DNA of 64,000 nucleotides from the IMG/VR virus record IMGVR_UViG_3300017707_000735, positions 1 through 64,000 of that record; one strand, given 5' to 3'. Below, one piece after another: positions 10,292 to 41,824 of the stretch (position 1 is the stretch's first letter; each line of letters opens with the position of its first letter). A program made the translations under genes and the position numbers. The stretch is from a virus. Lineage: Duplodnaviria > Caudoviricetes. Below the pieces are notes generated by a model that had not been told where the DNA came from, made no database searches, and worked only from the letters and a program-made list of their open reading frames with translations.

Positions 10292-11290
10292 ATGCCTAAT
10301 AATCCAAAAAAAGAAGCCCGTGTTGCAAAACGTGAGGCCCGTCAAGATGAAAAAAGAACTGTCAATCAGAAAAAAAAATATGACAGTTTTGTTAAACAAG
10401 GAGATAAGGAAAAAATGAAACTTGAGAAAAAGTATTCACCTACTCAAATTAGACAAATCATAGATGAGACTCCTGCGGGAATGAGAACTCCTTGGATGAA
10501 TAGTTATAAGGCACCTGCTACAATGAAAAAAGGAGGAGTTGCTAAATATCAAACGGGTGGTACTGCTAAAGCTGGTTTAGGTTCACCAAAAGCTAAAATT
10601 GCAGCTGCATCAAAAGCAATGAAGGGTATGAAGCCCGCTGCATCTAAAGTTGGTAAAACAGGTGCCGGTGCTGCTAAGTATAAAATGGGTGGTGCTAAGA
10701 AGTATCAAACCGGAGGAGGAACAGATCCGTATGCTTATAAAAAGAAAATGACTGATACTGCAAAGTATTGGGGTTCACAACCAAATGGTGAGTTTGATGA
10801 CTTAGCCTATACTAGAGATAACCTCTCTGATATGGAAAACACAAATGCGATGGACAGATCTTTTTATGACAGTTTAGGTCCTGTTGCACCAGGAAGAGCT
10901 AGAGCAGAATATGCACCTAGTTTTTCTCCAAGTAGAATAGCGTATACTAAAAGTAAATTAGCAGATTTAGAAACACCAAAACAAAAAAGAGGAGGTGCTG
11001 CTAAAGCTACTTACAAAACAGGTGGTATGGTAAATCCTAATGCTAAAGTTTCTGCACTTAAGAAAGCTGGATCTAAAGGAGTTAAGTCTGGAGTTAATCC
11101 TAAAGCAACTGCTGCTAAGCGTGCAACGGGTAGAGTAGGTGGTACATCTACGGCTCCTAAGAAGGCAATGCCAAAAGCTCAAATGGGCGGTAGTAAAACA
11201 CCATACATGAAGCCAACACCAATTGATTCTACCCTTACTAAAAAGGATGTGAAAAAAGTATTTAAGACTATTAAGAAAAGAAAAAACTAA
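10292..11290 (+). CDS. Basic K/A/G-rich protein with seven GG-motif repeats (putative virion-internal DNA-binding polyprotein)
   Basis: MKKGG, YQTGG, YKMGG, YQTGG, QKRGG, YKTGG, AQMGG; very Lys-rich. Confidence 0.75.
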   Translation: MPNNPKKEARVAKREARQDEKRTVNQKKKYDSFVKQGDKEKMKLEKKYSPTQIRQIIDETPAGMRTPWMNSYKAPATMKKGGVAKYQTGGTAKAGLGSPKAKIAAASKAMKGMKPAASKVGKTGAGAAKYKMGGAKKYQTGGGTDPYAYKKKMTDTAKYWGSQPNGEFDDLAYTRDNLSDMENTNAMDRSFYDSLGPVAPGRARAEYAPSFSPSRIAYTKSKLADLETPKQKRGGAAKATYKTGGMVNPNAKVSALKKAGSKGVKSGVNPKATAAKRATGRVGGTSTAPKKAMPKAQMGGSKTPYMKPTPIDSTLTKKDVKKVFKTIKKRKN

Positions 11291-11295
11291 ATAAG

Positions 11296-11463
11296 ATGGA
11301 AAACTATACAACAGGGAAACTTAAGAACCCAAATGCAAGTGTACAAGTACAAACAGTTCCGGGAAGCAAAGGGACCTTTGTTGGTCTTAATCCAGCAGCT
11401 ACTGTTCAGACAGTTGCTAAAGGTAGAGTAGGAGGAACTAGTGTTGCTCCAAAAAAATGCTGA
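11296..11463 (+). CDS. 55-aa basic protein missed by the ORF track; paralogue of an internal module of 10292..11290
   Basis: MENYTTGKLKNPNASVQVQTVPGSKGTFVGLNPAATVQTVAKGRVGGTSVAPKKC; ATG 11296, TGA 11461-11463; fills the gap between neighbours. Confidence 0.8.
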   Translation: MENYTTGKLKNPNASVQVQTVPGSKGTFVGLNPAATVQTVAKGRVGGTSVAPKKC

Positions 11464-11484
11464 GCCATCTAAAGAATTGAGATA

Positions 11485-11637
11485 ATGGCTAAGCAAATGC
11501 TTAAAAGAAAAGACGGTAGTTATTCCCAGAGAGGTCTCTGGGATAACATCCGTGCTGCTAAAGGTTCTGGAAAGAAACCTACTCAAGCAATGATTAAGCA
11601 AGAGAAAAAGATTAGAGCTACTACTAAAAAGAAATAG
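11485..11637 (+). CDS. 50-aa basic protein missed by the ORF track
   Basis: MAKQMLKRKDGSYSQRGLWDNIRAAKGSGKKPTQAMIKQEKKIRATTKKK; 16/50 K+R; TAG followed after 2 nt by the next ATG. Confidence 0.8.
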   Translation: MAKQMLKRKDGSYSQRGLWDNIRAAKGSGKKPTQAMIKQEKKIRATTKKK

Positions 11638-11639
11638 TC

Positions 11640-11792
11640 ATGGCAACAGCTAAGAAGAAAGATAAGAACTGGATTCAGAAAGCAGTTAATCCTGCTCACA
11701 AAGGCTATTGTACTCCAATGACAAAACCGACTTGTACACCAAAGCGTAAAGCATTGGCTAAGACATTTAAAGCAATGGCTAAAAAAAGATAA
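11640..11792 (+). CDS. 50-aa basic protein with a Cys pair, missed by the ORF track
   Basis: MATAKKKDKNWIQKAVNPAHKGYCTPMTKPTCTPKRKALAKTFKAMAKKR; 15/50 K+R and one acidic residue. Confidence 0.8.
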   Translation: MATAKKKDKNWIQKAVNPAHKGYCTPMTKPTCTPKRKALAKTFKAMAKKR

Positions 11793-11809
11793 TTATAAAA
11801 AATACAGAT

Positions 11810-12121
11810 ATGAAAAAGGCAAGTTTAGGAGCAATTGTCAAAAGCATAAGTTCAGGGGTAAAGGCTGGTAAGAAAACTTACAAAGCTGTTAAAACTGCAC
11901 AAAAAGTAAAAAAGGCTACTAAGGCTGCTAAAAATCCTAATGGATTTGATAGTGCTTTCTTAAAAGTATTTGGCTTAGCTGGTCTTGGTACAACTGCTGC
12001 CGCAATGAGTCAATACGGTGCTCAAAAGAAACGTTACATGGCTGAGGGTAAACGTAGAGAAGCTCTTAAAAAAGCTCAAAAACCTGCCGCTAAAAAACCT
12101 ACAAATACTAAAAAGAAATAA
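11810..12121 (+). CDS. Basic protein with a central Gly/Ala hydrophobic segment (103 aa)
   Basis: Lys-rich ends flanking AFLKVFGLAGLGTTAAAM; ends TKKK. Confidence 0.75.
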   Translation: MKKASLGAIVKSISSGVKAGKKTYKAVKTAQKVKKATKAAKNPNGFDSAFLKVFGLAGLGTTAAAMSQYGAQKKRYMAEGKRREALKKAQKPAAKKPTNTKKK

Positions 12122-12123
12122 TC

Positions 12124-12405
12124 ATGAAAGCACAAAACAAAACAAATCCACTTAAGCACTTTAATGATGTTAAAGAAGCTCAGTTAAAGAGAGCTAGCAA
12201 AGGTGCTATCATCAGTAATATGAATTCATTGCCTGAAGCACAACGTGGTGGTTGTAACTTTAGCCGTGCTCAAAAGAAAAACAAGAGAGCTAGAGCTTGG
12301 AACAACTTTAAAGAGAAAGCTGGTAATGTAGTAGGTGGTGTTCTTGGAGCAGGAGCTGCAGGTGCCGGTGGTTACTTTGCTTATAAAAAGCTTAAGAAAC
12401 AATAG
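12124..12405 (+). CDS. Basic protein with a GG motif and C-terminal glycine-zipper segment (93 aa)
   Basis: LPEAQRGG; VVGGVLGAGAAGAGGYFAYKKLKKQ. Confidence 0.75.
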   Translation: MKAQNKTNPLKHFNDVKEAQLKRASKGAIISNMNSLPEAQRGGCNFSRAQKKNKRARAWNNFKEKAGNVVGGVLGAGAAGAGGYFAYKKLKKQ

Positions 12406-12407
12406 TT

Positions 12408-12950
12408 ATGAAATCTCCTAAAGTTAAAGTTACTGCAGGTGGAGAAAAACATGTAGTATACAAGAAGACTACAAAAAGAGGTGAGGGAAAGGTTGGCAAC
12501 ATTATGGTCAACCACCCAACCAAAGATAAAGGGCAGTGGGACACAATAGATCTTACTGCCAAAGGAAGAGCAAAGACAATTAAACAGGGTGTGGCAGCTA
12601 CAAAGAAATGGCATAGAGATAACCCTGATTATGACTATAAAGGCAAAGGGTTGTCAAAGATGAAGTCTGGTGGAAGCACTGCAGCTTGGACACGCAAAGA
12701 AGGTAAGAATCCAGAGGGTGGTCTTAATGCTAAAGGTGTAGCAAGCTATAGAGCAGCTAATCCAGGTAGTAAACTTAAGACAGCTGTAACTACTAAACCT
12801 TCAAAGATTAAACCTGGAAGTGAAGCTGCAGGTAGACGCAAGTCTTTCTGTAGCAGAATGTCAGGGATGAAGAAAAAACTAACAAGTGCAAAGACAGCTA
12901 ATGATCCTAACTCAAGGATTAACAAGTCTTTAAGAAAGTGGAATTGTTAA
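12408..12950 (+). CDS. Two-domain basic protein; C-terminal domain resembles the widespread phage family AWxRKEGKNPxGGLN...SFCxRM...NKSLRKWNC (recalled as DUF6321)
   Basis: AWTRKEGKNPEGGLNAKG...RRKSFCSRMSGMKKKLTSAKTANDPNSRINKSLRKWNC, joined to the N-terminal domain by KMKSGG. Family name is from memory and not verified. Confidence 0.7.
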   Translation: MKSPKVKVTAGGEKHVVYKKTTKRGEGKVGNIMVNHPTKDKGQWDTIDLTAKGRAKTIKQGVAATKKWHRDNPDYDYKGKGLSKMKSGGSTAAWTRKEGKNPEGGLNAKGVASYRAANPGSKLKTAVTTKPSKIKPGSEAAGRRKSFCSRMSGMKKKLTSAKTANDPNSRINKSLRKWNC

Positions 12951-12971
12951 ATTTTATATATATAATTAATC

Positions 12972-13520
12972 ATGGCAACAACAAAAAAAACCAGTCCTAC
13001 AAAAATGGCTACCACGGCTATTAAGAAAAAGAAAGCTTCTTCTAAAAGAAGTACCTTAACACCTAATGCTCATACTTACCGTTCTAGAAAAGATGGCTCA
13101 CATGTGTTTAAATCAACTAATGAGAAGGGTAAGATTGACTACATTGGTAGTAGTCAAGATAGATCTAAAGGTGCCGGTATGAAAAGTAAAACTTTTTATG
13201 CTGGTTATGATGGTGGTGTTACTGGTTATGCTAAGAAACCTGTGAGTTATACAGTAACAAGCAGTAGTGATAGTAATAAGTCAGGGACTAAACACTTTGA
13301 AAAGAGTATTGATACTACAGGATTTGCTGCAGGTAAGAAAAACTTTACTGTTGTAAGTAAACAAAAGTTGCCGGGAGGTAATATGTATAAAATTACAAAG
13401 TCTAAGACTGATAGAAAAGGTGCTCTAGATACTATTAATAGAATGAAGAAGAGAGCAAGAAAACCTTTCACATCTTCAAAAGCAACTAGCTCTAAACCAT
13501 TAACTACCAAAAAGAAATAA
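12972..13520 (+). CDS. Basic K/S/T-rich protein (182 aa)
   Basis: Lys-rich, ends TTKKK, 2-nt spacing to the next ATG. Confidence 0.75.
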   Translation: MATTKKTSPTKMATTAIKKKKASSKRSTLTPNAHTYRSRKDGSHVFKSTNEKGKIDYIGSSQDRSKGAGMKSKTFYAGYDGGVTGYAKKPVSYTVTSSSDSNKSGTKHFEKSIDTTGFAAGKKNFTVVSKQKLPGGNMYKITKSKTDRKGALDTINRMKKRARKPFTSSKATSSKPLTTKKK

Positions 13521-13522
13521 TC

Positions 13523-14596
13523 ATGGCAAAGATGGCATGCGCTCAATGTGGTGGCGCAAAAAGAATGCAAGATGGAGGAACTGCTTCTAAGAAAGCAATA
13601 AGACAAGGTATGCGTGCAGTAAAAAAAGCAGACCGTCAGGATAAGCGTTACATGAATAAATATGAAAAACAAAAAGCTGAAGAACTTATGAAATCTAAAA
13701 GATTCCAAAAAGGTGGTATGACTGGTATTATTGGTATGCCTAAATATGGTAATAATCCAAATACTCAAGAAGGACGTATGCTTAAGAAGGGCGGCTCTGC
13801 TGCATCTAAAGGTTGTCCTGATGGATATTACTGGACTATTGATGGTTGTCAACCAAAGTATTCTGGTTATAAAGGACCATTATCATCTATTGGTGCTAAA
13901 TTAGGTGTTGGTTCTGGAATTGCTGCGGGCATTGGTATAGCTGCAAAAGCTATTAGTGATAGAAAGAAAAGAAAAGCAGCAGAGAAAGAAGAATCAATGA
14001 AGTTGGTTAACGATGCTAAAAAAATCAAAGACAAGTTGGCTCCTAAAAAACATGGGGGTCTTGCTAAAGCTGATTCTGGTATGCAGGTAAAACGTAATAT
14101 CACTAGACCTCTTCCTCCTAATACATCTGGTGTAAGAAAGAAATACGCTAATGGTGGAGTAACACAATCATTTGCTCAAAACCGTGCTGTAATGGCGTCA
14201 TGTAAAAATGGAATGGTTAGAGATGCTGGTGGTAAATGTGTTATGGAACGTAAGATGTCCAAAGGTGGTTTAGCAAAAGCACAAACTGGTACAACTGTAC
14301 CGGCAGGAACTGTGGTAAAAGGAGGTAAGGTCTGGAATGGTAAAGGATACAATCCTGCCCCTGTAAATCCAGCACCTGCTAATACTGTTCCTGTAGGAAC
14401 TGTTATCAACGATGGCAGAATCTGGAATGGAAAAGGTTATGATCCAGCTCCGGTAAAAGGAAAAAGAGGTGGTACTAAAATGGCTAAAGGAGGTATGACC
14501 AAAGCAAAGAAGTTTGCTGCACTAGCTCCACCATATAACAAAGCTACAGCTGCTGATAGAATTGCAGGCGCTAAGAAGAACTCAAGAAAAAAATAA
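13523..14596 (+). CDS. Basic K/G/A-rich protein with about seven GG-motif repeats (357 aa)
   Basis: MQDGG, FQKGG, LKKGG, KKHGG, YANGG, MSKGG, MAKGG; N-terminal CxxC; internal hydrophobic segment. Confidence 0.75.
   Translation: MAKMACAQCGGAKRMQDGGTASKKAIRQGMRAVKKADRQDKRYMNKYEKQKAEELMKSKRFQKGGMTGIIGMPKYGNNPNTQEGRMLKKGGSAASKGCPDGYYWTIDGCQPKYSGYKGPLSSIGAKLGVGSGIAAGIGIAAKAISDRKKRKAAEKEESMKLVNDAKKIKDKLAPKKHGGLAKADSGMQVKRNITRPLPPNTSGVRKKYANGGVTQSFAQNRAVMASCKNGMVRDAGGKCVMERKMSKGGLAKAQTGTTVPAGTVVKGGKVWNGKGYNPAPVNPAPANTVPVGTVINDGRIWNGKGYDPAPVKGKRGGTKMAKGGMTKAKKFAALAPPYNKATAADRIAGAKKNSRKK
14294..14455 (+). repeat. Degenerate 72-nt tandem duplication (TVPAGTVVKGGKVWNGKGYNPAPV / TVPVGTVINDGRIWNGKGYDPAPV)
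   Basis: Copies at 14294-14365 and 14384-14455. Confidence 0.8.
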
Positions 14597-14603
14597 TACT
14601 GTT

Positions 14604-15368
14604 ATGAAAAGTTCATTACCTAAAGCTAGATTTGGAAAAATAATCAAAGCCGTTGCTACAACAGGTAAAGCTGCTAAAGTTGTTAGATCAACTAGAAAAG
14701 TTGCAGGTACTACTATGGCTAAAGATGCCATAGCTGCAGCATCTAAAAGAACAACTGCAGCTAAGAAGGTGACAACAGCAGCTCCTAAAAAAACAACAGC
14801 TCAGCTAAAAGCTGAAAAATCTGCTGCTGATAAAAAGGCTAAAAATGTTGCACATGAAAAAACTGTGGCAGAAACTAAAAGAAGATCTGCTAAAAACACA
14901 GCTACCATTACTGCTAAACCTAAGTTAGAATCTGTTCCTAAACCAGCAGATGTTAAAAAAGCTAAAGGACCTAAAATCAGTAATAGTGTTTTGAAGAGTG
15001 CTCTAGAAGAAGCTTATGGAATTCCTAAAGCTACTAGAGGACGTCCAGCTAAAGCTAAAGTAGAAGCTCCAAAAGCGGAAGCACCTAAAGCTGAAACACC
15101 AAAGCCTGCAGAAGCTAAACCAAAAACTCCAACAACTTCAAAGAAGAAAACTACCACAGCTACTTCTAAGAAAAAACCTGAAGCCAAAAAGAAGGAAGAT
15201 CCTAAGAAAAAGGAAAAGCCTATGACTAAAGAGGAGATCAAAGACAACGCTGCAAAGTGGAAAAAAAGACTTGGTCTTAGTGTAGGTATTGCTGGTGGTC
15301 TTGGACTTTGGGCAGCATCTAAAAGTAAAGCAAAGAAAAAAGAAGGATGGAATCCACCTTATAAATAA
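14604..15368 (+). CDS. Histone H1-like K/A/P/T-rich protein with C-terminal hydrophobic segment; start revised from 14562 to 14604
   Basis: KAEAPKAETPKPAEAKPK-type repeats; LGLSVGIAGGLGLWAA near the C-terminus; ATG 14604 follows the upstream stop at 14596. Confidence 0.75.
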   Translation: MKSSLPKARFGKIIKAVATTGKAAKVVRSTRKVAGTTMAKDAIAAASKRTTAAKKVTTAAPKKTTAQLKAEKSAADKKAKNVAHEKTVAETKRRSAKNTATITAKPKLESVPKPADVKKAKGPKISNSVLKSALEEAYGIPKATRGRPAKAKVEAPKAEAPKAETPKPAEAKPKTPTTSKKKTTTATSKKKPEAKKKEDPKKKEKPMTKEEIKDNAAKWKKRLGLSVGIAGGLGLWAASKSKAKKKEGWNPPYK

Positions 15369-15373
15369 TTGAG

Positions 15374-16072: not shown

Positions 16073-16077
16073 TAGTA

Positions 16078-16527
16078 ATGGACAAACCAAGAATGTTAAA
16101 AAGAAATCCTGAGCCCGCAGCAAGTTATTCAGCACCGGCAGGAGGATCAATTGATTCAATGACGTCAGCATGTGTATCAGAGTTAATGAATGCTGCAACA
16201 AGCTTTCACAAACTTCACCTTAAAGTAACTGGTATAGGATCACATGCTGCACATACAGCGCTTAATGATTTGTATGATGCATTACCCGGACACGCGGATA
16301 GTTTAGCAGAAGGATATCAGGGAGCATCAGAAAAACTACTAGAGTACCAAGATGTATCTCCAAGATCACTTTCATCTGTAGAAGATGGTATAAGTTACCT
16401 TAGAGATATGTATGCAATGGTGACTAGCTTGCAAGCTAAGATGCCTTATTCTGAGATTGTAAATTCATTAGATACCCTAAAGGATAGCATCAACTCAGCT
16501 AAGTACAAACTTATTTTCTTAAAATAA
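16078..16527 (+). CDS. Dps/ferritin-like four-helix-bundle protein (149 aa)
   Basis: FHKLHLKVTGIGSHAAHTALNDLYDALPGHADSLAEGYQG matches the H...H.AL..LYD....D..AE pattern of phage Dps-like proteins. Confidence 0.7.
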   Translation: MDKPRMLKRNPEPAASYSAPAGGSIDSMTSACVSELMNAATSFHKLHLKVTGIGSHAAHTALNDLYDALPGHADSLAEGYQGASEKLLEYQDVSPRSLSSVEDGISYLRDMYAMVTSLQAKMPYSEIVNSLDTLKDSINSAKYKLIFLK

Positions 16528-16592
16528 TTTGGAAATCTTAATTTGATTTCCTATATTATAGTGTATATATTTATTAACTAAAAACAAAAACA

Positions 16593-18215
16593 ATGGCTTA
16601 TTTTAATCACGCCTTTAACAAAGTGTTCTTGGGAACAGGAAAAACAAATAATGATCTTCAGTTACCTGTAGGACTTGTTAGTACCGTTGAGGGTTACGTA
16701 ACAACAGAACATTCAATTCCTACTTATGGATTGAACCAATTGCATGACTATGCAATGCAAAGTGGTAGTCCTTACGAATCTGGATACTTTGGAGCATTCT
16801 ACTCTACAGGAGCTAATGCTAACAAATCTTGGACAGCTACTGACAACTGCTGCAGCATTTACTTTGCTGGTTCAGCTATCTACTCTAGCGACAAGATTGG
16901 TCCATTTGCTGGAGGTTACCAAGAGACTAACAAGTCTAAAATGGTTAACCCTAAGTATGTCTCTAGATTCTACCGTGTAGATCCTTGTCAACCATCTAAC
17001 AATGTAATCAACATTGGTCATACACCTTACACTAGCTCACGTGCTTTATCACTTGCTATTACAAATGATGGTGTTGATTTGGTAAACGGGGTTTATACAG
17101 ATATTCCATTGGTTGATACAACTGCTCCAACAGGATCAGGTCTTATTGTTACAATTACAGTTTCTGGAAACAATGTAACATTTGTAGAAATTACTAATGG
17201 TGGTACAGGATGGGTAACAGGTGATATTGTTACTACATCAACTGAATTGATTCCATATACAAACCCAGGTGGTGAAAATGCTCAACCTACATTTACAGTA
17301 ACTGCTGGAATTGGTGCTGACTGTTGTAGAGAATTCTTGTGTGGTGAAACTTATACTCTACGTGTAGACATCAAAGGTTCTCCAGCACTACGTTATTTGA
17401 ACCACAATGCTTATATCCTTGCTGATTACTATACAGGATGTTGCCCTACAGGAGATATCGCTCCTACACCAGTAGACTCAACATTGGTAATGATTGGATG
17501 GGCTAACCGTATTGTTAACTACCCAGTAGTTAATCCATTTGTTCTTCCTATTGTAATTGATGAAGCAGGTAATGAGTGGTACAAGCCAGGAACATTGAAT
17601 AACCTTGGACAACCAGTAGCTAATACTTGGGATAAATATGTATCTACAGGACACGCTGAAGGTGAGTGTGCAGGTTTGATCCTTAACGGAGCTTATGTTG
17701 ATACTAAGTTTGGTGATTGTACTTTCCAAGTATCTGACTTCTATGAAAAAGAGCCTGTACGTTTGTACGCTTCTGAAGTTGACTTGAATGGTGACCCATG
17801 TGAATTTAGTGGAGTATGTGTTATCACTGAGTGTCAACCTATCCAAGCACAAGGTTTTGGTGAGACAGTTCTACGTGAGTTGATTCTTTCTGAGAAATAC
17901 CGTCAGAACTTCTTCCACAGTGACTTCCGTATCCGTGAGATTACTCAAGGAAACCAGATTGTAAATGTTATTGACCGCAATGCATTGTATTTTAAGTACT
18001 ACTTATTGCACAATGTTCCACGTTTCAATAACCCATCAAGTACATTTGACAATGATCAATACTTGCTTGAGTTTGTAACTAATGCTCGTATTAATTCATT
18101 TGAAGCTGATATTACTGATTGGTTAGATACATGTGGTAACTTGTGTGAATTTGAAACATATGAGTGTGAATCTTCTTGTACACCAGTAGTACCAGTAGTA
18201 CCAGTTGTTGGCTAA
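16593..18215 (+). CDS. Virion structural protein (540 aa; auxiliary-capsid-like by synteny)
   Basis: Own AT-rich leader and downstream terminator, biased codons suggesting high expression, Thr/Gly-rich beta insert at about 17040-17310. Confidence 0.6.
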   Translation: MAYFNHAFNKVFLGTGKTNNDLQLPVGLVSTVEGYVTTEHSIPTYGLNQLHDYAMQSGSPYESGYFGAFYSTGANANKSWTATDNCCSIYFAGSAIYSSDKIGPFAGGYQETNKSKMVNPKYVSRFYRVDPCQPSNNVINIGHTPYTSSRALSLAITNDGVDLVNGVYTDIPLVDTTAPTGSGLIVTITVSGNNVTFVEITNGGTGWVTGDIVTTSTELIPYTNPGGENAQPTFTVTAGIGADCCREFLCGETYTLRVDIKGSPALRYLNHNAYILADYYTGCCPTGDIAPTPVDSTLVMIGWANRIVNYPVVNPFVLPIVIDEAGNEWYKPGTLNNLGQPVANTWDKYVSTGHAEGECAGLILNGAYVDTKFGDCTFQVSDFYEKEPVRLYASEVDLNGDPCEFSGVCVITECQPIQAQGFGETVLRELILSEKYRQNFFHSDFRIREITQGNQIVNVIDRNALYFKYYLLHNVPRFNNPSSTFDNDQYLLEFVTNARINSFEADITDWLDTCGNLCEFETYECESSCTPVVPVVPVVG

Positions 18216-18238
18216 TTAATTTATCACAAACTAGAATC

Positions 18239-18281
18239 GGGAGAGTGAGAGTTCCAAACTCTTCTCTCCCTTTCTTTTTTT
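18239..18281 (+). terminator. Intrinsic terminator
   Basis: GGGAGAG-T-GAGAGTT / AACTCTT-CTCTCCC stem followed by TTTCTTTTTTT. Confidence 0.85.
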
Positions 18282-18292
18282 ATATTACACCC

Positions 18293-18835
18293 ATGGCAAA
18301 TCATGTATTAAGTTTAGAGGTACCTACGGTAATGAATAACTGTATCTTGTCTATCAATGATACAAGTGTTTATGCTGACTTAGTACCCGTTACCTGTGCT
18401 ACACTAAATGTGACAGTACCAGGTTTTACTTATTCTAATCAGATTGATGTAACACCTGGGTTTAACCAGATTCTTACAGGATGTGATTTAGGATTGCAGT
18501 CTACAAACTGCGGGACTACTTATGTACCGCTAGCTGATGGTATCTATATAATCAAGTATAGTGTATCACCAAATGATATAGTGTATGTAGAGTACAATCA
18601 TTTAAGAATTACACAAGCTCTTATTAGATATAACAAAGCATTATGTTCTCTAGATCTTGCAGCATGTGAGCCACCGGCTAAAACTCAAGAGAAACTAGAA
18701 AGACTGAGAATGATCAGAATGTACTTAGATGCTGCTAAAGCTAAAGTAGAATTTTGTCATGAGCCGCAAAAAGGTATGAGCTTGTATAACTATGCAATCA
18801 AACTTTTGAATAAATTTGACTGTAAAAATTGTTAA
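18293..18835 (+). CDS. Tail hub/collar-like structural protein (180 aa); start revised from 18176 to 18293
   Basis: The track's start overlaps the previous gene and spans the terminator; in-frame ATG at 18293 gives MANHVLSLEV...; beta-rich N-terminus and helical Cys-containing C-terminus. Function from synteny only. Confidence 0.55.
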   Translation: MANHVLSLEVPTVMNNCILSINDTSVYADLVPVTCATLNVTVPGFTYSNQIDVTPGFNQILTGCDLGLQSTNCGTTYVPLADGIYIIKYSVSPNDIVYVEYNHLRITQALIRYNKALCSLDLAACEPPAKTQEKLERLRMIRMYLDAAKAKVEFCHEPQKGMSLYNYAIKLLNKFDCKNC

Positions 18836-18853
18836 CCATAAAAAACCAACAAT

Positions 18854-19057
18854 ATGTCAAAATGTTTAAACTGCGGAGCTCAATTAACCTGTGGATGTCA
18901 AAAGAGAAAAGCATCTGATGGTAAACAAGTATGTGCCAATTGTGTTGGCAGATATGAGGCAGGGGCAACACAAAAGATTATTAAACCATTGGCTAAGCCA
19001 ACTATCACTGTTCCTCAGCATAATGCTTGGGGACCAAACAGATATAAGAAAACCTAA
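18854..19057 (+). CDS. Small Cys-rich (Zn-finger-like) protein (67 aa)
   Basis: C-x2-C-x5-C-x-C-x11-C-x2-C; tight packing with neighbours. Confidence 0.65.
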   Translation: MSKCLNCGAQLTCGCQKRKASDGKQVCANCVGRYEAGATQKIIKPLAKPTITVPQHNAWGPNRYKKT

Positions 19058-19062
19058 GTAAG

Positions 19063-20889: not shown

Positions 20890-20922
20890 GAATAATTAGT
20901 ATATTATAAATATATGTAAAGT

Positions 20923-22587: not shown

Positions 22588-22597
22588 TATTTAAAAG

Positions 22598-23263: not shown

Positions 23264-23304
23264 AATATGTCGCAGGTTGTTGGTTTCTGTGGCTGACAAG
23301 TGGA

Positions 23305-23340: not shown

Positions 23341-23389
23341 AGTATATTTGCTTAACTTGATTATTTTTCGTATATTAAATAAGTATAGC

Positions 23390-25682: not shown

Positions 25683-25683
25683 T

Positions 25684-33674: not shown

Positions 33675-33675
33675 A

Positions 33676-36477
33676 ATGGCAAAGTTCAAGATAACAGGAT
33701 TACCTAAAGCACAAATAGGTGGTAAGACAGCTACCAGTTTATTGTTTTCACCATATGAACAAGGGATGTTTAGCAATAGCTTGCATTCAATTGGTGGTGC
33801 AGATCCTTCATTTATTTTAGGTGCTGAAAGATCTAACCTGTTTCCAATATGGGGACACAACAATGGTGTGCGTTCATCTTTATCAGGACAAGTACAGATT
33901 CCTTATGCTATGAATCAGATACCTGGAGTTAAAGGAAGATGGACAAGTGAGTATTCACCAAATGCCGGAAAGTCTCCTGTTCAATTTACAACCACAGGAC
34001 AGCTTGAAGGTGGATACAACCCAGATCAAGGATTTAATGCAAGTATAATGGGATGGCCTCATGTATGGGGATCTACTGTAGATGTATCAAGATGGAGAAA
34101 TCCTGAAAAATATTATGCAGGTGCTGTCCGTGCAGGTATTGGTCCTCAGCTTGGTGGATCTTATATGTCAGGAATGATGAACTCATCAGGACCAAATTAT
34201 ATTAGCGGTACAGATCAAATGAATACTAATAAAGGAAGTGTTCATATTGGTGGTAGAGGTTATGTTGAGTATACGCCTACTGACTGGTTAAAATTAAGAC
34301 TTGATGCACAGGGAATGTTTGACCCTCTTACAAAAAAAGTAGCAGAGGGAACTGACGCAGGAAATGCAGCTGAAACAGAAAATGTTAATCTAAAGTTTTC
34401 TCCAGGAGTACAACTTACAGCTACAGTTCCTATTAAAGCTTTAGCAAGTAATAAGAAGAAAGCTTCAGAAGAGAAGGTTAAAATGGATGCTGTTAAAGCT
34501 GATGATAAAAATATCATGGTTGAAGCACCTGTTATGACAGGACCTGGAATAGATTGGGAGTACAGACAAAAACAACAAAGTACTGGAGTACCAGTAGGAC
34601 ACTTGCCAGGATATGAACCTGAAACAGGAAGACAACTCACTGAAGCAGAATTAATGCAAAGATACGGTCAAGGACCACGTTTAACAAAAGGTGGAACAGC
34701 TAATGATATCTATCTTGATCTTGATGATGATGAAATAGAACAGTACAGAAACGCAGGTTACATAGTAGAGGATTTACCAGAAGCACAGAAGGGTGGTGAA
34801 CAGACATATACCTATGCTGACAGACCTGAAGCTACTTATAAAAAAGATGCTAAGGGTAATTGGTTAATCAGTCTTCCATCAACTGATGGAAAGTATGTAC
34901 CTATCAAAGATCCATCAGGTAAGCGTGCAGGAGAGTTAAATGAAAAAGCTAAGCCTGTTGAGAAGCCTACTCTTATGACAAAGGCATACAGCTCTGTAAA
35001 AGACTTCAACCGTTTGCCAGAAGCAGACAAAAAAGCTAGAGCATCTATGTATGCATTTAATGAAAAAATGCGAAACTCCGGAATGTATTATGGGGCTAAT
35101 GGATGGCAAAGACCTATGGCAAGTGGAGCTGCTCAATCTGCTGACTGGTTCTGGACACTTCCGATAGCATTACCTGCTATAACACAAACACTAGGAGGTA
35201 TCGGAGCTATGTCATTACCCGGTATGGCGTCTATACCTGGAGCAACTGTAGGTAACCTTGTTAATTCTGGGTTTATTGCTAGTAGCTTAATGGGTGCTCC
35301 TGGAAATGTTATGGATTGGTATAATGTAATACAAGGTAAAAAAGATTGGAAGGATGCGGCAATGGATAGTGCAGATATAGCATTAGGGTTTATTGGTTCT
35401 GGTTCTGGATGGAAATCACTAATACAAGATGCAAAAACATTGAAAGCCCCATCTAAAATAGTAAGCAAAACTCGTAGCACTGTGGGTAATGTAATAAAGC
35501 CAGGTGTATTATCAGCAAAACCAAATCAGTACTCAATTGCAGGTCAACGTGGTGCTGCAGGTAAAACTGGGTTAGATGCATCTCATGTAGAAGACGTAAG
35601 AAAAAAAGCTATTGCTAGATTACAGTCAGATGACTATCTAAAAAAGAGAATGGCTAATACTGGAGAAACTGAAGAACAGGTTAGAGCGGATGTGAAAAAA
35701 ATAATTTCTGAAGCTGAGGATGCAAAGTATAATTTGAATGCATATATTAGCACAGAAGGAGTGCAGACACCAAAAGGATTGCAAAACTTATGGAGATATC
35801 CTACAGTAGATATATCAAAAAATGCAGAGAATCCTATAACTACTTTGATTCATGAGAATAATCACTTGTATTCTCCTGCTGGTTACTCACAACATCTAGG
35901 ACGTATGGTTCAGGGTCGAGGTAATCCAAATATTGCTTCAATCCCTTTTGGTAAAAAGAGAGGTGTTTATGCTAATTATCCTCAACTAGGTGTAACGGAT
36001 GACATTGGTGAGTATGAAGCAAGAGAATGGGAACAACAAGTTAGACACTTGAACGCAAGAGATCAAATTATTTCAGCAAATAATCTAGCAGAAGATGCTA
36101 AAGTAACACCAGAAATGGTAGAGAAGTTTGCAGGTGATTGGTTTAAACGTATGAAGACTGAAGGTGCTGTTGGAGAAGATTATGATCTTATTTGGAATTC
36201 TGAACTAAGGAACGTAAGAGAAACTTTGGCTAAAGAAAAAGGTTATGCAAATACTGCAGAACTTGAGAAAAATTTAACAGAAGCTGATAAAGCAGCATTC
36301 CTAGCAGAGGTTAGAAAGAGATTTTCAGAAAAAGTTGCTGGTGTATTAAACAATGCATGGATGGGTGTTCCTGCTGTAATAGGTGCCGGTGCATTAGGTG
36401 CAGGAGCTACAGACGGTGAGTTTAAAAAAGGTGGTTTCCCAAAGAATATAGGTAAACTTAAAAAGTTTATCAGATAA
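33676..36477 (+). CDS. Modular cargo-type protein (933 aa): beta-rich N-domain, hydrophobic helices, zincin domain; start revised from TTG 33661 to ATG 33676
   Basis: AQIGG, LTKGG, AQKGG, FKKGG; HENNH at 35851-35865; hydrophobic segments at about 35140-35304 and 36355-36408. Confidence 0.7.
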   Translation: MAKFKITGLPKAQIGGKTATSLLFSPYEQGMFSNSLHSIGGADPSFILGAERSNLFPIWGHNNGVRSSLSGQVQIPYAMNQIPGVKGRWTSEYSPNAGKSPVQFTTTGQLEGGYNPDQGFNASIMGWPHVWGSTVDVSRWRNPEKYYAGAVRAGIGPQLGGSYMSGMMNSSGPNYISGTDQMNTNKGSVHIGGRGYVEYTPTDWLKLRLDAQGMFDPLTKKVAEGTDAGNAAETENVNLKFSPGVQLTATVPIKALASNKKKASEEKVKMDAVKADDKNIMVEAPVMTGPGIDWEYRQKQQSTGVPVGHLPGYEPETGRQLTEAELMQRYGQGPRLTKGGTANDIYLDLDDDEIEQYRNAGYIVEDLPEAQKGGEQTYTYADRPEATYKKDAKGNWLISLPSTDGKYVPIKDPSGKRAGELNEKAKPVEKPTLMTKAYSSVKDFNRLPEADKKARASMYAFNEKMRNSGMYYGANGWQRPMASGAAQSADWFWTLPIALPAITQTLGGIGAMSLPGMASIPGATVGNLVNSGFIASSLMGAPGNVMDWYNVIQGKKDWKDAAMDSADIALGFIGSGSGWKSLIQDAKTLKAPSKIVSKTRSTVGNVIKPGVLSAKPNQYSIAGQRGAAGKTGLDASHVEDVRKKAIARLQSDDYLKKRMANTGETEEQVRADVKKIISEAEDAKYNLNAYISTEGVQTPKGLQNLWRYPTVDISKNAENPITTLIHENNHLYSPAGYSQHLGRMVQGRGNPNIASIPFGKKRGVYANYPQLGVTDDIGEYEAREWEQQVRHLNARDQIISANNLAEDAKVTPEMVEKFAGDWFKRMKTEGAVGEDYDLIWNSELRNVRETLAKEKGYANTAELEKNLTEADKAAFLAEVRKRFSEKVAGVLNNAWMGVPAVIGAGALGAGATDGEFKKGGFPKNIGKLKKFIR
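36453..36469 (+). promoter_or_regulatory. Palindromic site TAAACTT-AAA-AAGTTTA upstream of the cargo gene at 36515
   Basis: Perfect inverted repeat 45 nt before the ATG; TATATT at 36490-36495. Confidence 0.5.
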
Positions 36478-36514
36478 ATTTAAAATAAGTATATTTAGTA
36501 TATAGCATGCTATT

Positions 36515-39500
36515 ATGAAAAGAAAAGTAAGAGTTTACAAAGCAGAAGACGGACAAGGTCAATACCATAACCAAATGTCCCAGTTCTTAAAAAGAGCTCA
36601 GATGGGTATGGAACAACAAGCTCAACAGCCAGACATGCAACAAATTGTAATGCAAGTTGCTGGAATGCTAATGCCACCACCAGATGGTCAGGGAGCAGAT
36701 GCAGAACAAGTGTATCAGTCTTTGATTCAATCATATGGTGAAGCGGCAGCAACTCAGATTATTAATGTTGCTGTAGGTATGGTACAACAATCTTCAGGTT
36801 CTGAACAAGCTGCCGGTCAAGAGATGGCACAAGAAGAAGAGGAGTCTGTAGATGATCTTACTATGCAAGAAGAACTTATTAGAGAAGAGCGGGAACGTCA
36901 GCAAGAACAAAGAGATGCTGAGTACATGGCTGAAGATGACGAGTTCATGTATGATTTGTTGTATGGTGATGAAGAAGCTCAACAAGAAGAACAGCCTGAA
37001 GCTAAACATGGTGGTGCTCATCATAAAAAGTTTGTAAAGAAAGCAATGAAACTTGCTAGAAAACAAATGGGTGATGCCGGCAACGGTCAAGGTAAAAACA
37101 AAGCAGACATTTTTGATGGGGCTATGAAGAGATCAGAAGACTTCACCAACAATCTTAAAAATGAAGCTACCTTATCTTTATTAGAAAAGCAGTTTAAGAA
37201 TATGTCACAAGCTGCACCTCAAATGAATGCAGGACAGCAGTTTGCATATGGAGGATCACAGTTCGGTGGGATGACTGGATATGGTCTAGATAGATTTGTA
37301 TATGGTGGTTATGATCCGTCTGTACCCGATTTAACAGAGGCCATGTATGGTTATCAAACCGGTGGTATGATTGCTATCAATGATAAAGATGGTAACAGAA
37401 GATATGTGACTCAAGAAGAAGCTGACAACTGGAACAATGCTATTAAAGATGATCCTGATATGTTATTGTCAGACTTATCATTCAAGAGTGAAAGTCCTAT
37501 GAATGATCCTAACTATAAAATGTGGAGTGATCTTAAGGACAAAGGTGTAAATGTAGGTGATTACCGTCAGGGAATAAACTATAAGCAGTTTGCTAACTCT
37601 GGAAATAAAAACACAAACTATAATTATGTTGAGAAACCATACTCAACAGATAATATCTGGGATGCTCTTATTCCTAATAATAGAATCTTTGGTAAGAAGT
37701 ATACTATGTATGGTCCTATGAATCATTTAGGACTACCTTTTACAGGGCCATTCAATCCAATGAGTATGATGAATGGGTTTGATGTAGATAAACAAAGATT
37801 AGGTTTTGGTCATAAGCGTTATACATTTACACCAAAAGGTGCATCATCCGCTAGCGGTACCGGAATGGGTACAGGAGCAGGTAGTGGTGCAGGTTTTGTT
37901 CCAGGTCCTGGGCAAGCAGTAGATGCTATGGGCAAACCAGTTACATCTCAGAAACAACTTGAGATGTCATACTTAAATCCAGCATACTTACGTCAGTCAG
38001 GTAAAGAGTTAAAAGATCTTAACTTACATCCTTATAGCAAACAAGAAATGAGAAATGCTAGACAGGACTTAAGACAGTATGACAGAGCTGGCAGAAAAAT
38101 GGATAGGAAAAGTGATTGGGCTCAAGATAAATTTGGAAATAATGGTCAAAAACAAAAGGGTGACTTTTGGCCAAGATTAGCTGGATTCTTAAGAACAGCA
38201 GAGAAAGCTAGAGATGGTTTACAAACTTTCCAAGGTAACGTGAATGGATCTTCTGTAAATAATCAAGAGACTCCTATTGAATTTAAACCTAGAACAGCAA
38301 AAGAAGTTTGGGATAAATATGAGCCAGAACTTAGAAAACAATGGGGTAGTAAGATTGGTCAAGAATCAGAATTAGAAAAAGGTACACCAAGTTTTCGAGT
38401 TGATGAGGAAAACTATTTCAATGGGGAGAACTTTTTGAATATGGCTAACCCTATGCTTAAAGGTTTGACTAACCTGTTTAACAGAGGTGAAAAGAAAAAC
38501 TTCTTTGGTTATCAAAACAATACTTCAGATGATCTAGCTGATGTAAATGAGCAAAGATTTCATGGTAACTACAATCCTTTGTCAGGTGATTTTAGAGAAG
38601 ATTTACAAGGTCAGAATTGGCAAAGTAAATATGGTGGTGTACCTCATATGAAAATGGGTGGACCTAAAGGTAGAACTGGGCAACAGGTAGATTACTCATT
38701 AGGTATTTTCCCTACAGCTATGGGAGGCTCAGACATCAACCAGTATATTGGAAAAAAAAAGCCAGAGATATCAAGTACACTAAAACCCGTACCAAGAGAT
38801 AAAGCAAATCTAGAAGCTGAGAAAGGTGAAACTGCATACGGAGATCTTAATGGAGATGGATTCCCAGAACACTATGAGATTGGCGGCAAGCGTCACTACC
38901 AAGGTGGTACACCATTAGATCTTCCAGATGATACATTTATCTTTAGTGACACTAGATCTATGAGAATTAGCGACCCTAAGATTCTTAAGATGTTTGGTAA
39001 GTCACCTAAGAAAGGTGGTTATACACCTGCAGAACTTGCTAAGCAATATGATATCAATGCATACCGTAAGATTCTTGATGATCCAGATTCAGATGTAGTA
39101 GATAGAAAGACTGCAGAGCAAATGATTAAGAACTTCAACATTAAACTTGGAGCTCTGGCACTTGCACAGGAATCTAAGAAAGGTTTCCCTCAAGGTATTC
39201 CAGTTGTGGCAAAACCATATATGGAGACTATGGGAATCAGTGAAGAAGATATCTTACCTAAAGAAGAAGAAGCACAACAAATGGCTCAACAAATGATGGG
39301 TCAACAAGGAATGCCTCAAGGTGAACAACAAGCTATGATACCGGAAGAGCAAATGGCAATGGCTTCACAAGAAGGTATGATGGCTAGCCCAGAAGAAATG
39401 GGAATGAGTCCTGAAGGTATGATGAGATATGGTGGTATGCGTAGATTGAGAAGAGCTCAAGAAGGTATGGCACAAGGTCAACCATCTCCTGAAGAAATGG

Positions 39501-41824
39501 CTATGATGCAACAACAGCAACAACAAGGTGGTGGTGATGAGATGGCGCAAGTAATGCAACAGGTACAACAAGCTCTTCAACAAGGAGCACAACCTGAAGA
39601 AGTTGCTGCGCAGTTAATGCAAAACCAAATGCCGCCAGAAGCTATAATGCAAATCTTTATGCAGATTGGCATACCACAAGAAGAAGCTGCGGGTATTATA
39701 CAATCAGTAATACAGGGTGCTCAGCAAGCACCAATGGCTGCTTATGGAATGCAGATGGGGGGTTACGACATGCCTTTTGCACAAGAAGGTACGTTTGTAA
39801 TGCCTAATCTTGGTGATCCTTTAGAAATTGAAAAGCGCAATCAAGAATGGGCTACAAGACTGGAGAACAATCCTATTAAACTTAATGTTGCTAAAGATGA
39901 TACAAAAAGTGATTTTACTGATTGGAGAGGTGACACATATCATGCTTCAAAACATGGTTATGCTGATGAGCCATGGTTTAATATGGGTCTAACTCATGAT
40001 CAATTAAGAAATTTCTACCAGCATCGTGGTGATAATATGTTACCAATTAATCATCCTAACAACACTAACTATTTTTGGGACCCGTCTAAGATGGCTTATG
40101 GAGGATCACTTGATAGATACCAAACTAAAGGTGAGGTAAAACAAAAAGTATATACTGAAGATAACTTACCTGAAGGTGCTGTTATTGTAGAAAAATATAC
40201 ACGCGGAAAAAAACCAGGTGACTTTGAACTACAAGAAGATGGTACTTATAGAAAGGTGACTAAGTATGACCTTAAACCTTCTGCATCAAGTGCAACTAAG
40301 CAGCAAACTGCAGCTGATTTTGCCGCACAGTCTGAAGAAAATAAAAAACTACTAGAGCAGGCTAATGCAATTATTGCAAGAGAAATTGGTAAAGGAACTA
40401 TTGAAGGTGATGCGGATGGCGGTGATATTAAACTACTAGGTAATCTTAGCTTACCATTCAATGAAAGAATCATTTTAAGTAAAGCACTTAACTCTAATAA
40501 AGATTTTGGTACTGATAAGTTTAAGGTAACTAAACAAAGTGCTACCACAGGTTATTCTCAAAAAAGTAGCAGAGGTGACTATAAAGGTACCGGATCATTT
40601 GTAGCAGGATTTACTCCAGAAGATTATGAGAAGCGCTACGTATATGAGCAGTTAAAAGGAATGGGTGCAGATGATGAAACAGCATTTGCTGAAATTGATA
40701 AAATTTATTCTGACCCTAAACAAAAAGCAGGAGCAAGAAGAGAGTATCTAAACTTCTTAGGTGTTACAGCACCAGCAGATGATGCTGAGTTACTAGATGC
40801 TAACTTCTATAAGACACGTTACAAAGATGTGACAACTGCTATGGAAAGATTGGATGAGAGTACGTTTAGAACATCTAAAGCTGGAGGTAATGACTTGATT
40901 TCAGGGTTTGACCACTTTGATGCAATGGGTTTTGAATATAATCCAGAGTATGAGGCTGAACAACAAGAGCAAGAAGAAGAAGAAACTGATGAAGAAGGTG
41001 ATGTTACAGAAGATGTAGAAGTACCTGTTCCTAAGTATGCACCATGGTGGTTGCAAGATACTATAAAAACAGCAGGAGCATTTGGTGATCTTATGGGTGT
41101 TAAGAAGTATTATCCTTGGGCGCCTAAGTACAATCCGTCAATTCCGGATCCAACATTCCTAGATCCTACAAGATCTATTGCTGCACAAAGTGAACAAGCA
41201 AGAATCCTTGGTGATACAATGTCTAAGATAACTCCTAGTTCTTCTATGGCGGCTTCTAGATTAGCTGGTCTACAAGGAGAGTTGGCTAAGGGTGCTGCAG
41301 ACACTGCTAATCAATATGACAAAGCTAACGTAGAGATAGCAAATCAATTTGCACCTATGCAAGCTGAGATGTCTAACAAAGCTCAGGAATACAATCTTGG
41401 TCAGACTAAAGCACTATATGATGCTAATACGTTGATGAACCAGCAGTATGATAACTCTAAGCGTGCTATGAAGCAGAACTTGCTTAACCAGTACACTAAT
41501 GCTATCACTAACCGTTGGAAGACAGATGCTATGAATCAGTTGTATCCTCAGTACGCTGTTGACCCAGCAACTGGTGGTAGACTTGATTTCAAAGGAGGTA
41601 AAAAACAGAAACCTACAGTTGCTAAATCATATGGTGACTATTACAATGAAGCATTTGAGATTACTGGTGACAGTGATGCATCAGCTAAATATGCATTGCT
41701 TGCTTGGAAACAAAGTCAAGGTGAAGATATTGGTGGAGGTGCTGAAGCTGTAATGAGCATGTATCAAAAGAATGGCGGTACCTTCACAATAGGACCAGGA
41801 ATGCTTCCACCGTTTATACTGTAA
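36515..41824 (+). CDS. Large cargo (ejected) protein with many GG motifs (1769 aa)
   Basis: More than ten GG motifs, Q/M/E-rich low-complexity blocks, EAEKGE...GGKRHYQGG domain, N/Q-rich helical C-terminus; position after the muzzle. Confidence 0.7.
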   Translation: MKRKVRVYKAEDGQGQYHNQMSQFLKRAQMGMEQQAQQPDMQQIVMQVAGMLMPPPDGQGADAEQVYQSLIQSYGEAAATQIINVAVGMVQQSSGSEQAAGQEMAQEEEESVDDLTMQEELIREERERQQEQRDAEYMAEDDEFMYDLLYGDEEAQQEEQPEAKHGGAHHKKFVKKAMKLARKQMGDAGNGQGKNKADIFDGAMKRSEDFTNNLKNEATLSLLEKQFKNMSQAAPQMNAGQQFAYGGSQFGGMTGYGLDRFVYGGYDPSVPDLTEAMYGYQTGGMIAINDKDGNRRYVTQEEADNWNNAIKDDPDMLLSDLSFKSESPMNDPNYKMWSDLKDKGVNVGDYRQGINYKQFANSGNKNTNYNYVEKPYSTDNIWDALIPNNRIFGKKYTMYGPMNHLGLPFTGPFNPMSMMNGFDVDKQRLGFGHKRYTFTPKGASSASGTGMGTGAGSGAGFVPGPGQAVDAMGKPVTSQKQLEMSYLNPAYLRQSGKELKDLNLHPYSKQEMRNARQDLRQYDRAGRKMDRKSDWAQDKFGNNGQKQKGDFWPRLAGFLRTAEKARDGLQTFQGNVNGSSVNNQETPIEFKPRTAKEVWDKYEPELRKQWGSKIGQESELEKGTPSFRVDEENYFNGENFLNMANPMLKGLTNLFNRGEKKNFFGYQNNTSDDLADVNEQRFHGNYNPLSGDFREDLQGQNWQSKYGGVPHMKMGGPKGRTGQQVDYSLGIFPTAMGGSDINQYIGKKKPEISSTLKPVPRDKANLEAEKGETAYGDLNGDGFPEHYEIGGKRHYQGGTPLDLPDDTFIFSDTRSMRISDPKILKMFGKSPKKGGYTPAELAKQYDINAYRKILDDPDSDVVDRKTAEQMIKNFNIKLGALALAQESKKGFPQGIPVVAKPYMETMGISEEDILPKEEEAQQMAQQMMGQQGMPQGEQQAMIPEEQMAMASQEGMMASPEEMGMSPEGMMRYGGMRRLRRAQEGMAQGQPSPEEMAMMQQQQQQGGGDEMAQVMQQVQQALQQGAQPEEVAAQLMQNQMPPEAIMQIFMQIGIPQEEAAGIIQSVIQGAQQAPMAAYGMQMGGYDMPFAQEGTFVMPNLGDPLEIEKRNQEWATRLENNPIKLNVAKDDTKSDFTDWRGDTYHASKHGYADEPWFNMGLTHDQLRNFYQHRGDNMLPINHPNNTNYFWDPSKMAYGGSLDRYQTKGEVKQKVYTEDNLPEGAVIVEKYTRGKKPGDFELQEDGTYRKVTKYDLKPSASSATKQQTAADFAAQSEENKKLLEQANAIIAREIGKGTIEGDADGGDIKLLGNLSLPFNERIILSKALNSNKDFGTDKFKVTKQSATTGYSQKSSRGDYKGTGSFVAGFTPEDYEKRYVYEQLKGMGADDETAFAEIDKIYSDPKQKAGARREYLNFLGVTAPADDAELLDANFYKTRYKDVTTAMERLDESTFRTSKAGGNDLISGFDHFDAMGFEYNPEYEAEQQEQEEEETDEEGDVTEDVEVPVPKYAPWWLQDTIKTAGAFGDLMGVKKYYPWAPKYNPSIPDPTFLDPTRSIAAQSEQARILGDTMSKITPSSSMAASRLAGLQGELAKGAADTANQYDKANVEIANQFAPMQAEMSNKAQEYNLGQTKALYDANTLMNQQYDNSKRAMKQNLLNQYTNAITNRWKTDAMNQLYPQYAVDPATGGRLDFKGGKKQKPTVAKSYGDYYNEAFEITGDSDASAKYALLAWKQSQGEDIGGGAEAVMSMYQKNGGTFTIGPGMLPPFIL

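Follow-up and report, generated by a model that had tools for sequence, protein, structure and literature searches.

The DNA analysed here, referred to as the window, comprises positions 1 to 64,000 of the IMG/VR record IMGVR_UViG_3300017707_000735 and belongs to a linear virus contig of 76,321 bp whose completeness is estimated at 64%. It derives from an environmental crAss-like phage, a member of a group that ranks among the most abundant viruses known. Two blocks of genes in the window, an array for small basic proteins in the head operon (10292-15368) and three large genes further downstream (31269-41824), encode proteins that share a pentapeptide ending in Gly-Gly. This peptide, the seam motif, is the subject of this work. 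Genes are named by their start coordinates; those of both blocks and the muzzle gene lie on the plus strand.

PHROGs profiles matched the terminase large subunit (TerL), the portal, and the major capsid protein, the last of which is at most 24-30% identical to capsid proteins of cultured phages (Leptolyngbya phage Lbo-JY46, csAssE-Sib, and the Cellulophaga phages phi4:1 and phi17:2). Pfam placed crAss ring protein 2 at 23971 and ring protein 1 at 24642, both upstream of the gene for the 1861-aa muzzle protein (25684-31269; PF25731 crAss_MUZ, E 9.5e-29), which served as synteny anchor for the genes downstream. The post-muzzle genes 31269, 33676, and 36515 occupy the same place as the cargo genes gp45 and gp46 in PhicrAss001, and the order from muzzle to cargo matches gp44-gp45-gp46 of that phage. 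This position, together with gp040 of phi4:1 described below, suggests that the three cargo-type proteins are probably packaged into the virion and delivered.

We defined the strict motif as [MYFA][QKAR]xGG and the loose motif as the same pattern with any of MYFAHLIWV at the first position. Together the two blocks contain 29 strict and 41 loose copies; the original prediction had put the number at about 35, between the two. The strict copies are distributed over genes 10292 (six), 12124 and 12408 (one each), 13523 (five), 31269 (six), 33676 (three), and 36515 (seven). Shuffling the residues within each protein (n = 2000) gave 2.97 ± 1.71 copies with a maximum of 9, so that the Lys/Gly-rich composition of these proteins is not the cause, and a composition artefact was ruled out. 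For 10292 and 13523 alone, the shuffles predicted 0.3 and 0.6 copies. In the flagged open reading frames (ORFs), motif residues stand upstream of 29 of the 70 Gly-Gly dipeptides (4.5 expected), as against 3 of 72 (2.9 expected) in the other 22 ORFs. Elsewhere in the proteome there are 3 motifs with 2.4 expected, one in TerL and two in a 3645-aa RNA polymerase (RNAP)-like protein, and the strict count was zero in the portal, the 412-aa ORF between portal and major capsid protein (6270-7508), the major capsid protein, the ring proteins, and the muzzle. Both the enrichment and the near-absence elsewhere had been predicted.

The motif is usually preceded by Lys or Arg and followed by x-(Ile/Leu/Val). 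Around the Gly-Gly pairs of 141 homologues of the 33676 protein, Phe (5.3-fold), Tyr (4.6-fold), and Met (2.4-fold) are enriched three positions upstream, Gln, Lys, Arg, or Ala two before (Gln 3.1-fold), Asp or Glu one before, and Ile, Leu, or Val two positions after. Single-glycine variants also exist, as had been claimed (LAKAQTGT, RRAQEG, and LPKARFG). The glycine codons of the motif are a mixture of GGT and GGA and vary as they do in the bulk sequence, which indicates conservation at the level of protein and rules out a DNA repeat or microhomology.

In line with the original prediction, the motif is conserved while the modules around it vary: cassettes are freely shuffled and the enrichment recurs in four independent sets of metagenomic homologues. 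The best 120 of 601 homologues of the first cargo-type protein (801 aa; found with its residues 1-380) contain 585 motifs with 32 expected. For the 33676 protein, an exhaustive search returned 288 cluster representatives that match separate modules, and 141 of these hold 476 motifs (50 expected). Of 333 homologues of the 1769-aa product of gene 36515, 119 have 302 (67 expected), and 478 were counted in 61 syntenic arrays with 428 small ORFs (38 expected). In homologues no more than 70% identical, 77% of motif Gly-Gly pairs are kept, compared with 45% of other Gly-Gly pairs and a mean residue identity of 49%. G92 and G93 of the 801-aa protein are retained in at least 90% of rows, the homologues being mostly about 25-50% identical to the query. 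At sites 166, 973, 1082, and 1196 of the 1769-aa protein, Gly-Gly is kept in 84-96% of aligned homologues with flanks about 50% identical; sites 246 and 283 of this protein are lost.

The motif lies at the borders of recurring modules, as had also been proposed. We scored as break points those alignment ends at which both proteins continue, using all-against-all BLAST of 259 large homologues. Of the 60,778 ends, which are non-independent events, 31% lie at most 5 residues from a motif, 5.8 times the expectation, and the peak is nonetheless sharp, with 8231 ends exactly on the second Gly. The ends of free-standing proteins map to the same positions. At 142 of 224 distinct sites their N-termini fall no more than 4 residues from the second Gly (30 expected), and at 127 of 258 their C-termini fall between -10 and +4 of it (55 expected). 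One example is the free protein MATAKKKDKNWIQ, which in fused form reads FKNGG|STKDKNWIQ. The modules so delimited are 40-130 residues long and include basic modules, DUF6321, a Zn ribbon, beta domains, and enzymes (zincin, VanY, SLT, SET). Because free array genes recur as motif-flanked modules of cargo proteins and protein ends map onto the motif, the head array and the post-muzzle genes draw on one module pool. The seam is thus a unit delimiter at the joints of small interchangeable modules, and almost every joint is marked.

Structure prediction places most copies outside folded domains. The AlphaFold2 model of the 801-aa protein (mean predicted local distance difference test score, pLDDT, 66) has confident domains at residues 25-88, 160-295, and 380-440. 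The segments in which its pLDDT falls below 50 (90-97, 133-153, 318-329, and 363-375) start on the motifs at 89-93, 135-139, 322-326, and 365-369, and the folded domains end just before them. The motif as part of a folded domain was therefore ruled out for most sites; this does not hold for HYQGG at residue 797 of the 1769-aa protein, which lies in a well-conserved block, or for the Gly-Gly within the tail-like EEIxxYRxGGYIVEEL. We conclude that selection maintains (aromatic/Met/Ala)-(Gln/Lys/Arg/Ala)-x-Gly-Gly as a short linear motif in disordered linkers, where it marks unit borders.

The first gene of the array (10292-11290) encodes a 332-aa basic protein with its six seam motifs starting at nt 10523, 10547, 10679, 10703, 11012, and 11177. 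It is followed by a 55-aa protein (11296-11463) that is a free-standing copy of the 10292 module between YKTGG and AQMGG; residues 241-292 of 10292 are paralogous to it, with 56% identity over 52 aa (BLASTP, E 1e-12), and its own N-terminal motif has decayed to YTTGK. The next two genes encode free-standing 50-aa basic modules, MLKRKDGSYSQRGLWDNIRA... (11485-11637) and KNWIQKAVNPAHKGYCTPMTKPTCTPKRKALAKTF (11640-11792). Both are without the motif, so that it does not belong to the fold or function of the module itself. The 11485 module occurs inside at least 997 longer proteins; in other phages it is found within cargo-type proteins of 544-2000 aa at 70-79% identity, in the context Y[AY]xGG | M[IL]KRADGSYS ... 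KKIN xx | YxxGG. In relatives, the 11640 module is fused behind FKNGG or AKKGG (contigs L011 and L023) or forms the C-terminal part of a 136-aa protein (L005).

Downstream lie genes for a 103-aa Lys/Ala-rich protein with a tag-like N-terminus, MKKASLG (11810-12121), and a 93-aa basic protein with LPEAQRGG at nt 12238 (12124-12405). Gene 12408 (12408-12950) encodes a 180-aa protein of two modules, VTAGGEKH...NPDYDYKG and DUF6321 (PF19846, E 1.3e-19), joined by the seam MKSGG (nt 12660). Its halves are separate genes in relatives, the N-terminal half is an internal module of large cargo-type proteins elsewhere, and free DUF6321 begins MAK|TPAWTR where the fused form reads MKSGGS|TPAWTR. DUF6321 as a general carrier of the motif was rejected, since 531 cyanophage and pelagiphage records with DUF6321 are without the seam. 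The array continues with a 182-aa basic protein without strict motifs (12972-13520), a 357-aa basic protein with five strict and eight loose motifs (13523-14596), and a 254-aa Lys/Ala-rich, histone-H1-like protein (14604-15368) with homologues on contigs L011 and L014. The N-terminus of 13523, MAKMACAQCGGAKRMQDGG, is seen again in relatives, and close relatives of this gene in IMG/VR were limited to one distant locus.

Four of these proteins (11810, 12124, 13523, and 14604) each have one Gly/Ala-zipper-like hydrophobic stretch, such as LGLSVGIAGGLGLWAA; it is Gly-rich in 12124 and C-terminal in 14604. These stretches could span or disturb membranes. Composition and gene position suggest that the head may be filled with DNA-binding and membrane-active peptides.

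Array modules are split or fused in differing ways across relatives. The capsid-auxiliary-like gene 9245 has 491 relatives in IMG/VR, and the distance from it to the ring gene ranges from 1.1 to 5.9 kb across 61 loci holding the 428 small ORFs. This gap (10265-15373 in the window; L011-L090) is a hypervariable hot spot, in which flanking genes 70-90% identical enclose differing sets of small basic genes. A DUF5856 gene (16078-16527; L005:8974-9396) adjoins the array here and in contigs L005-L007.

In the 801-aa protein (31269-33674), a conserved N-terminal carrier (residues 25-88 and 160-295) is joined to a tail-like module, a Zn ribbon, a beta module at 380-440, and a region with the HExxH sequence HELSH at residue 655. 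Its N-terminal beta domain (31341-31532; residues 25-88, pLDDT >90) is a conserved carrier for which no structural neighbours were found in the PDB, and the payloads behind it differ among relatives (P0002-P0120). They comprise SET (PF00856), VanY (PF02557), SLT (PF01464), HC2-like (PF07382), and zincin domains. The Zn-ribbon cassette CKKCGWEWDAADGGDDVTTCHKCGG (32286-32372) has seams on both sides, YKxGG and HAQxGG, and varies widely in position, being found at residue 158, 344, or 854 of different proteins. The second cargo-type protein (33676-36477, about 933 aa) is ordered as N-terminal tag, beta-rich domain, tail-like module followed by AQKGG, hydrophobic region, gluzincin domain (HENNH; residues about 630-900), and a C-terminal FKKGG tail that is disordered in the predicted model. 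The third (36515-41824) is a Gln/Met-rich protein of 1769 aa with seven strict and ten loose motifs. Pfam assigned no family to any of the three. BLAST of GenBank phage records with the 801-aa protein, the 1769-aa protein, and the 50-aa module gave no match, a Foldseek search with the 801-aa model returned nothing below E 0.001, and a protein Atlas search gave no lead.

Two related signals are found at protein ends. In at least 100 of the 259 large homologues, the C-terminus consists of the motif, 5-10 residues, and (E)LTPEEIxxY(K/R)xxGYxVEEL(D), or directly of EIxxYRxGGYIVEELD; Pfam gave only a weak DUF7210 match for this tail (E 0.03). The peptide, about 20 residues long, ends the 801-aa protein (33585-33671) and also occurs internally in the 801-aa protein (32175-32228) and the 33676 protein (about 34720-34780), within a module that the two share (39% identity over 176 columns, E 1.5e-24). 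As the same peptide ends many large homologues, the internal copies look like former C-termini. The tail may have a docking role at protein ends. A cyanophage structural protein (L008) contains a similar peptide, LPEFTELQIDAMRKNGIEVEVVDE.

The second signal is an N-terminal tag with a single Gly, MA(T/K)(I/V/M)KK..AQxG, carried by small free-standing proteins (71 of 120 small homologues). It lies in the first 25 residues of 84 of 428 array ORFs compared with 2 of 609 flanking ORFs. Examples in the window are MAKFKITGLPKAQIGG of the 33676 protein (33676-33723), MAKMACAQCGG of 13523 (13523-13579), and MKSSLPKARFG of 14604 (14604-14636). The tag was also seen on small basic proteins of large contigs with RecA, ribonucleotide reductase, and GH19 genes (L005-L007).

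HExxH is present in the 801-aa, 33676, 3645-aa, and 2241-aa proteins. In the 33676 domain, both His residues, the Glu, and a downstream Glu are invariant in 31 homologues. The model of this domain has a predicted template modelling score of 0.70, and the 12 structures closest to it are without exception zinc metallopeptidases, with modest Z scores of 6.6-4.9; they include Zmp1 (Z 6.6, root-mean-square deviation 4.6 over 166 residues), ECE-1, PepO, neprilysin, and M1 aminopeptidases. Foldseek with the same model gave nothing below E 0.001, and PDB sequence searches with the HExxH regions of the 801-aa and 33676 proteins gave no significant match. The 2241-aa protein is encoded after the RNAP-like giant (contig 64169-70894; L091:10938-17660) and has HExxH at residue 475 and LysM at 1924-1962 (E 9e-7), a combination that ties at least one virion zincin protein to peptidoglycan. 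Pfam and PHROGs scans of most contig proteins, the ORFs 121-426, 429-692, and 18176-18835 being among those left out, detected no other peptidase family; clan CE, C39, and prohead proteases were likewise not found in these scans of a contig estimated to be 64% complete.

The motif is also found in cultured phages. In PhicrAss001, gp45 is the only protein with the strict motif (FAEGG, AKDGG, and FAYGG; 3 vs 0.7 expected), and the pieces of gp45 resolved by cryo-electron microscopy, barrel-bound 214-245 and portal-bound 425-552, fall between the motif-like sites at 260, 370, and 559. In phi4:1, the motif is concentrated in gp040 (FQAGG 81, YQNGG 324, FQIGG 515, and FQSGG 548; 4 vs 0.3 expected), a virion protein by tandem mass spectrometry that adjoins gp041, another virion protein with a phage tail lysozyme domain and HExxH.

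We tentatively favor the reading that the motif is a processing site at which units are released, perhaps by the zincin domains of two of the cargo proteins and probably after ejection. A cut at or just after Gly-Gly would yield units that correspond to the free-standing proteins. Gluzincin domains in cargo proteins of the same phage are candidates for the protease, and a host enzyme could also act. Cutting after ejection into the cell seems more likely than cutting within the capsid, and the related single-Gly tag MAxxKKAQxG on free-standing small proteins would represent this signal at the beginning of a protein, serving as a short propeptide or an address. We rank this reading first because the free modules lack the motif, unit borders coincide with protein ends, zincins reside in the same proteins, and processing has been predicted. 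Zincins were proposed to process multi-domain phage proteins (PMC5512222), and fused crAss-like virion polyproteins were called "likely cleaved" (preprint 10.1101/2020.03.07.982082).

Several observations weigh against a processing site. The evidence above fits an uncut motif equally well. Gly-Gly at P2-P1 is typical of cysteine proteases and not of gluzincins. The hydrophobic preference after Gly-Gly is weak, and the pair is not strictly needed, since LPKAQIGG is replaced by LPKAQY-GK, with a single Gly, in a 64%-identical relative. In the model of the 33676 zincin domain, the neighboring FKKGG tail does not lie in the cleft. Avoidance of the motif by the remaining phage proteins was not seen, but with the counts given above this comparison is powerless, and we dropped avoidance as an indication of a protease. 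On published gels, PhicrAss001 virions gave bands at 150, 270, and >300 kDa, with size discrepancies described as only "moderate" (PMC6235969); this is consistent with near full-length giant cargo proteins and argues against their wholesale cleavage within the capsid of that phage. The structural atlas of crassviruses mentions neither seams nor proteolysis (Bayfield et al., 2023; PMC10172136). Of the original interpretation, a selected and conserved border motif and the joining of both gene blocks in one module pool stand.

A more specific form of the processing site, in which the seam is the cut site of virion-borne zincins and the cargo proteins of crAss-like and related Bacteroidota phages are true polyproteins, is possible but doubtful. 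Cutting of (F/Y/M)-x-x-G-G after ejection would then release dozens of small basic, membrane-active, and enzymatic units, and the tagged small genes of the head operon would be a pre-cut version of the same arsenal. It would also be the first defined processing code for polyvalent phage proteins, readable directly from sequence.

Nearly as likely as a processing site is a role as an uncut address or tether. Here the motif would be a docking peptide by which proteins are loaded into the procapsid or retained on an inner partner, such as scaffold, portal, the inner face of the capsid, the ring barrel, or DNA, with multiple copies adding avidity; the KKAQxG tag would act like the capsid-targeting sequence of T4, with no need for removal. 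The confinement of the motif to genes of the virion module, its multiple copies in accessible linkers, and its placement 5-35 residues before the C-terminal end of well over 100 of the 259 large homologues are consistent with this role, as are the prevalence of the N-terminal tag on array ORFs and small homologues, the near full-length cargo proteins in PhicrAss001 virions, and the bound pieces of gp45 between motif-like sites. However, genes 11485, 11640, 12972, and 14604 of the same operon lack a Gly-Gly motif, no partner is known, and the motif lies outside the resolved, bound parts of gp45. If the motif is a packing tag, it might be used to load foreign proteins into such particles in laboratory phage-host systems.

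The location of the motif exactly at module ends and in linkers, the extreme shuffling of cassettes, and the tolerance of single-Gly variants would also fit a passive seam, a domain-end cap with a flexible Gly-Gly hinge that allows independent folding and threading through portal and tail, has neither a specific partner nor a cut, and is reused simply through cassette recombination at a shared peptide. We consider this less likely, because a hinge needs neither an aromatic residue or Met three positions upstream nor Gln or Lys beside it, yet both are strongly enriched, and because a related tag stands at the N-termini of free proteins, where a hinge is needless. The conservation of G92/G93 within a linker, at 90% or more, also counts against a hinge, as do the varying codons, which show that DNA microhomology is not the driver within this genome. 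Chance, in the form of low-complexity Lys/Gly/Ala-rich sequence or recent internal duplication, can practically be dismissed: some copies in 10292 do lie in short tandem duplications (KYQTGG twice), but all shuffles stay below a third of the observed count and the enrichment recurs in four homologue sets and in conserved alignment columns.

Whatever its role, a delimiter that can be read from sequence lets giant orphan proteins be split into working modules and connects hundreds of orphan phage genes for small basic proteins with the same system. Small basic proteins packed with DNA and injected are known from other phages. T4 has internal proteins with a capsid-targeting sequence, and phiKZ-type inner-body proteins are cut by a prohead protease. 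Processing of the latter type is described for SPN3US (PMC10052503). Like the T4 and phiKZ systems, the array described here combines small basic proteins with a short N-terminal tag or several sites of one consensus, and a short peptide is shared by the N-termini of otherwise unrelated small proteins as in T4. There, processing defines the mature units. In contrast to the seam motif, the T4 and phiKZ consensus sequences have Glu as their last residue (L/I-x-E, S/A/G-x-E), and a dedicated serine prohead protease cuts them.

Gly-Gly-directed cutting is performed by the adenovirus protease at (M/L/I)xGG-x, by pS273R of African swine fever virus (ASFV) at GG-x, and by C39 peptidases on double-glycine leaders. 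These systems share with the seam a hydrophobic residue a few positions before Gly-Gly and a motif that delimits mature products. Their enzymes are, however, cysteine proteases, of which none was seen on the contig in our scans. The seam also deviates from the adenain consensus, since its hydrophobic residue is at -5 from the putative cut and not at -4, that is, three positions before Gly-Gly instead of two. Double-glycine leaders are single, N-terminal, 15-30 residues long, and accompanied by a C39 transporter, whereas the seam motif is mostly internal and multicopy and the tags mostly have a single Gly. The adenovirus, ASFV, and C39 parallels are analogies only.

The closest counterparts are found among phage cargo. 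The crassvirus cargo proteins C1 and C2 (gp45 and gp46 of PhicrAss001) are likewise encoded directly after the muzzle, and gp45 has a few motif-like sites, but the motif is far denser here, and the PF25725 crAss_CARG1 model had no match at E <= 10 across the 76-kb contig. Polyvalent proteins are large phage proteins in which unrelated effector, nucleic-acid-binding, and virion-related domains are strung together, a zincin-like metallopeptidase being the commonest; they were predicted to be packaged into the head, to be delivered along with the DNA, and possibly to process themselves (Iyer, Burroughs, Anand, de Souza, and Aravind, 2017; PMC5512222). The cargo-type proteins described here resemble them in having several unrelated domains per polypeptide (carrier, Zn ribbon, beta modules, and zincin), including the zincin-like one. 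They differ in that their units are much smaller, also exist as free-standing gene arrays, and are connected by one conserved peptide at every joint, whereas no junction or cleavage motif was defined for polyvalent proteins and the terms "glycine" and "GG motif" are absent from that text. A description of the motif was found neither there, nor in the crassvirus atlas, nor in full-text literature searches. We regard the seam motif as a general feature that is new but belongs to proteins of a known kind.

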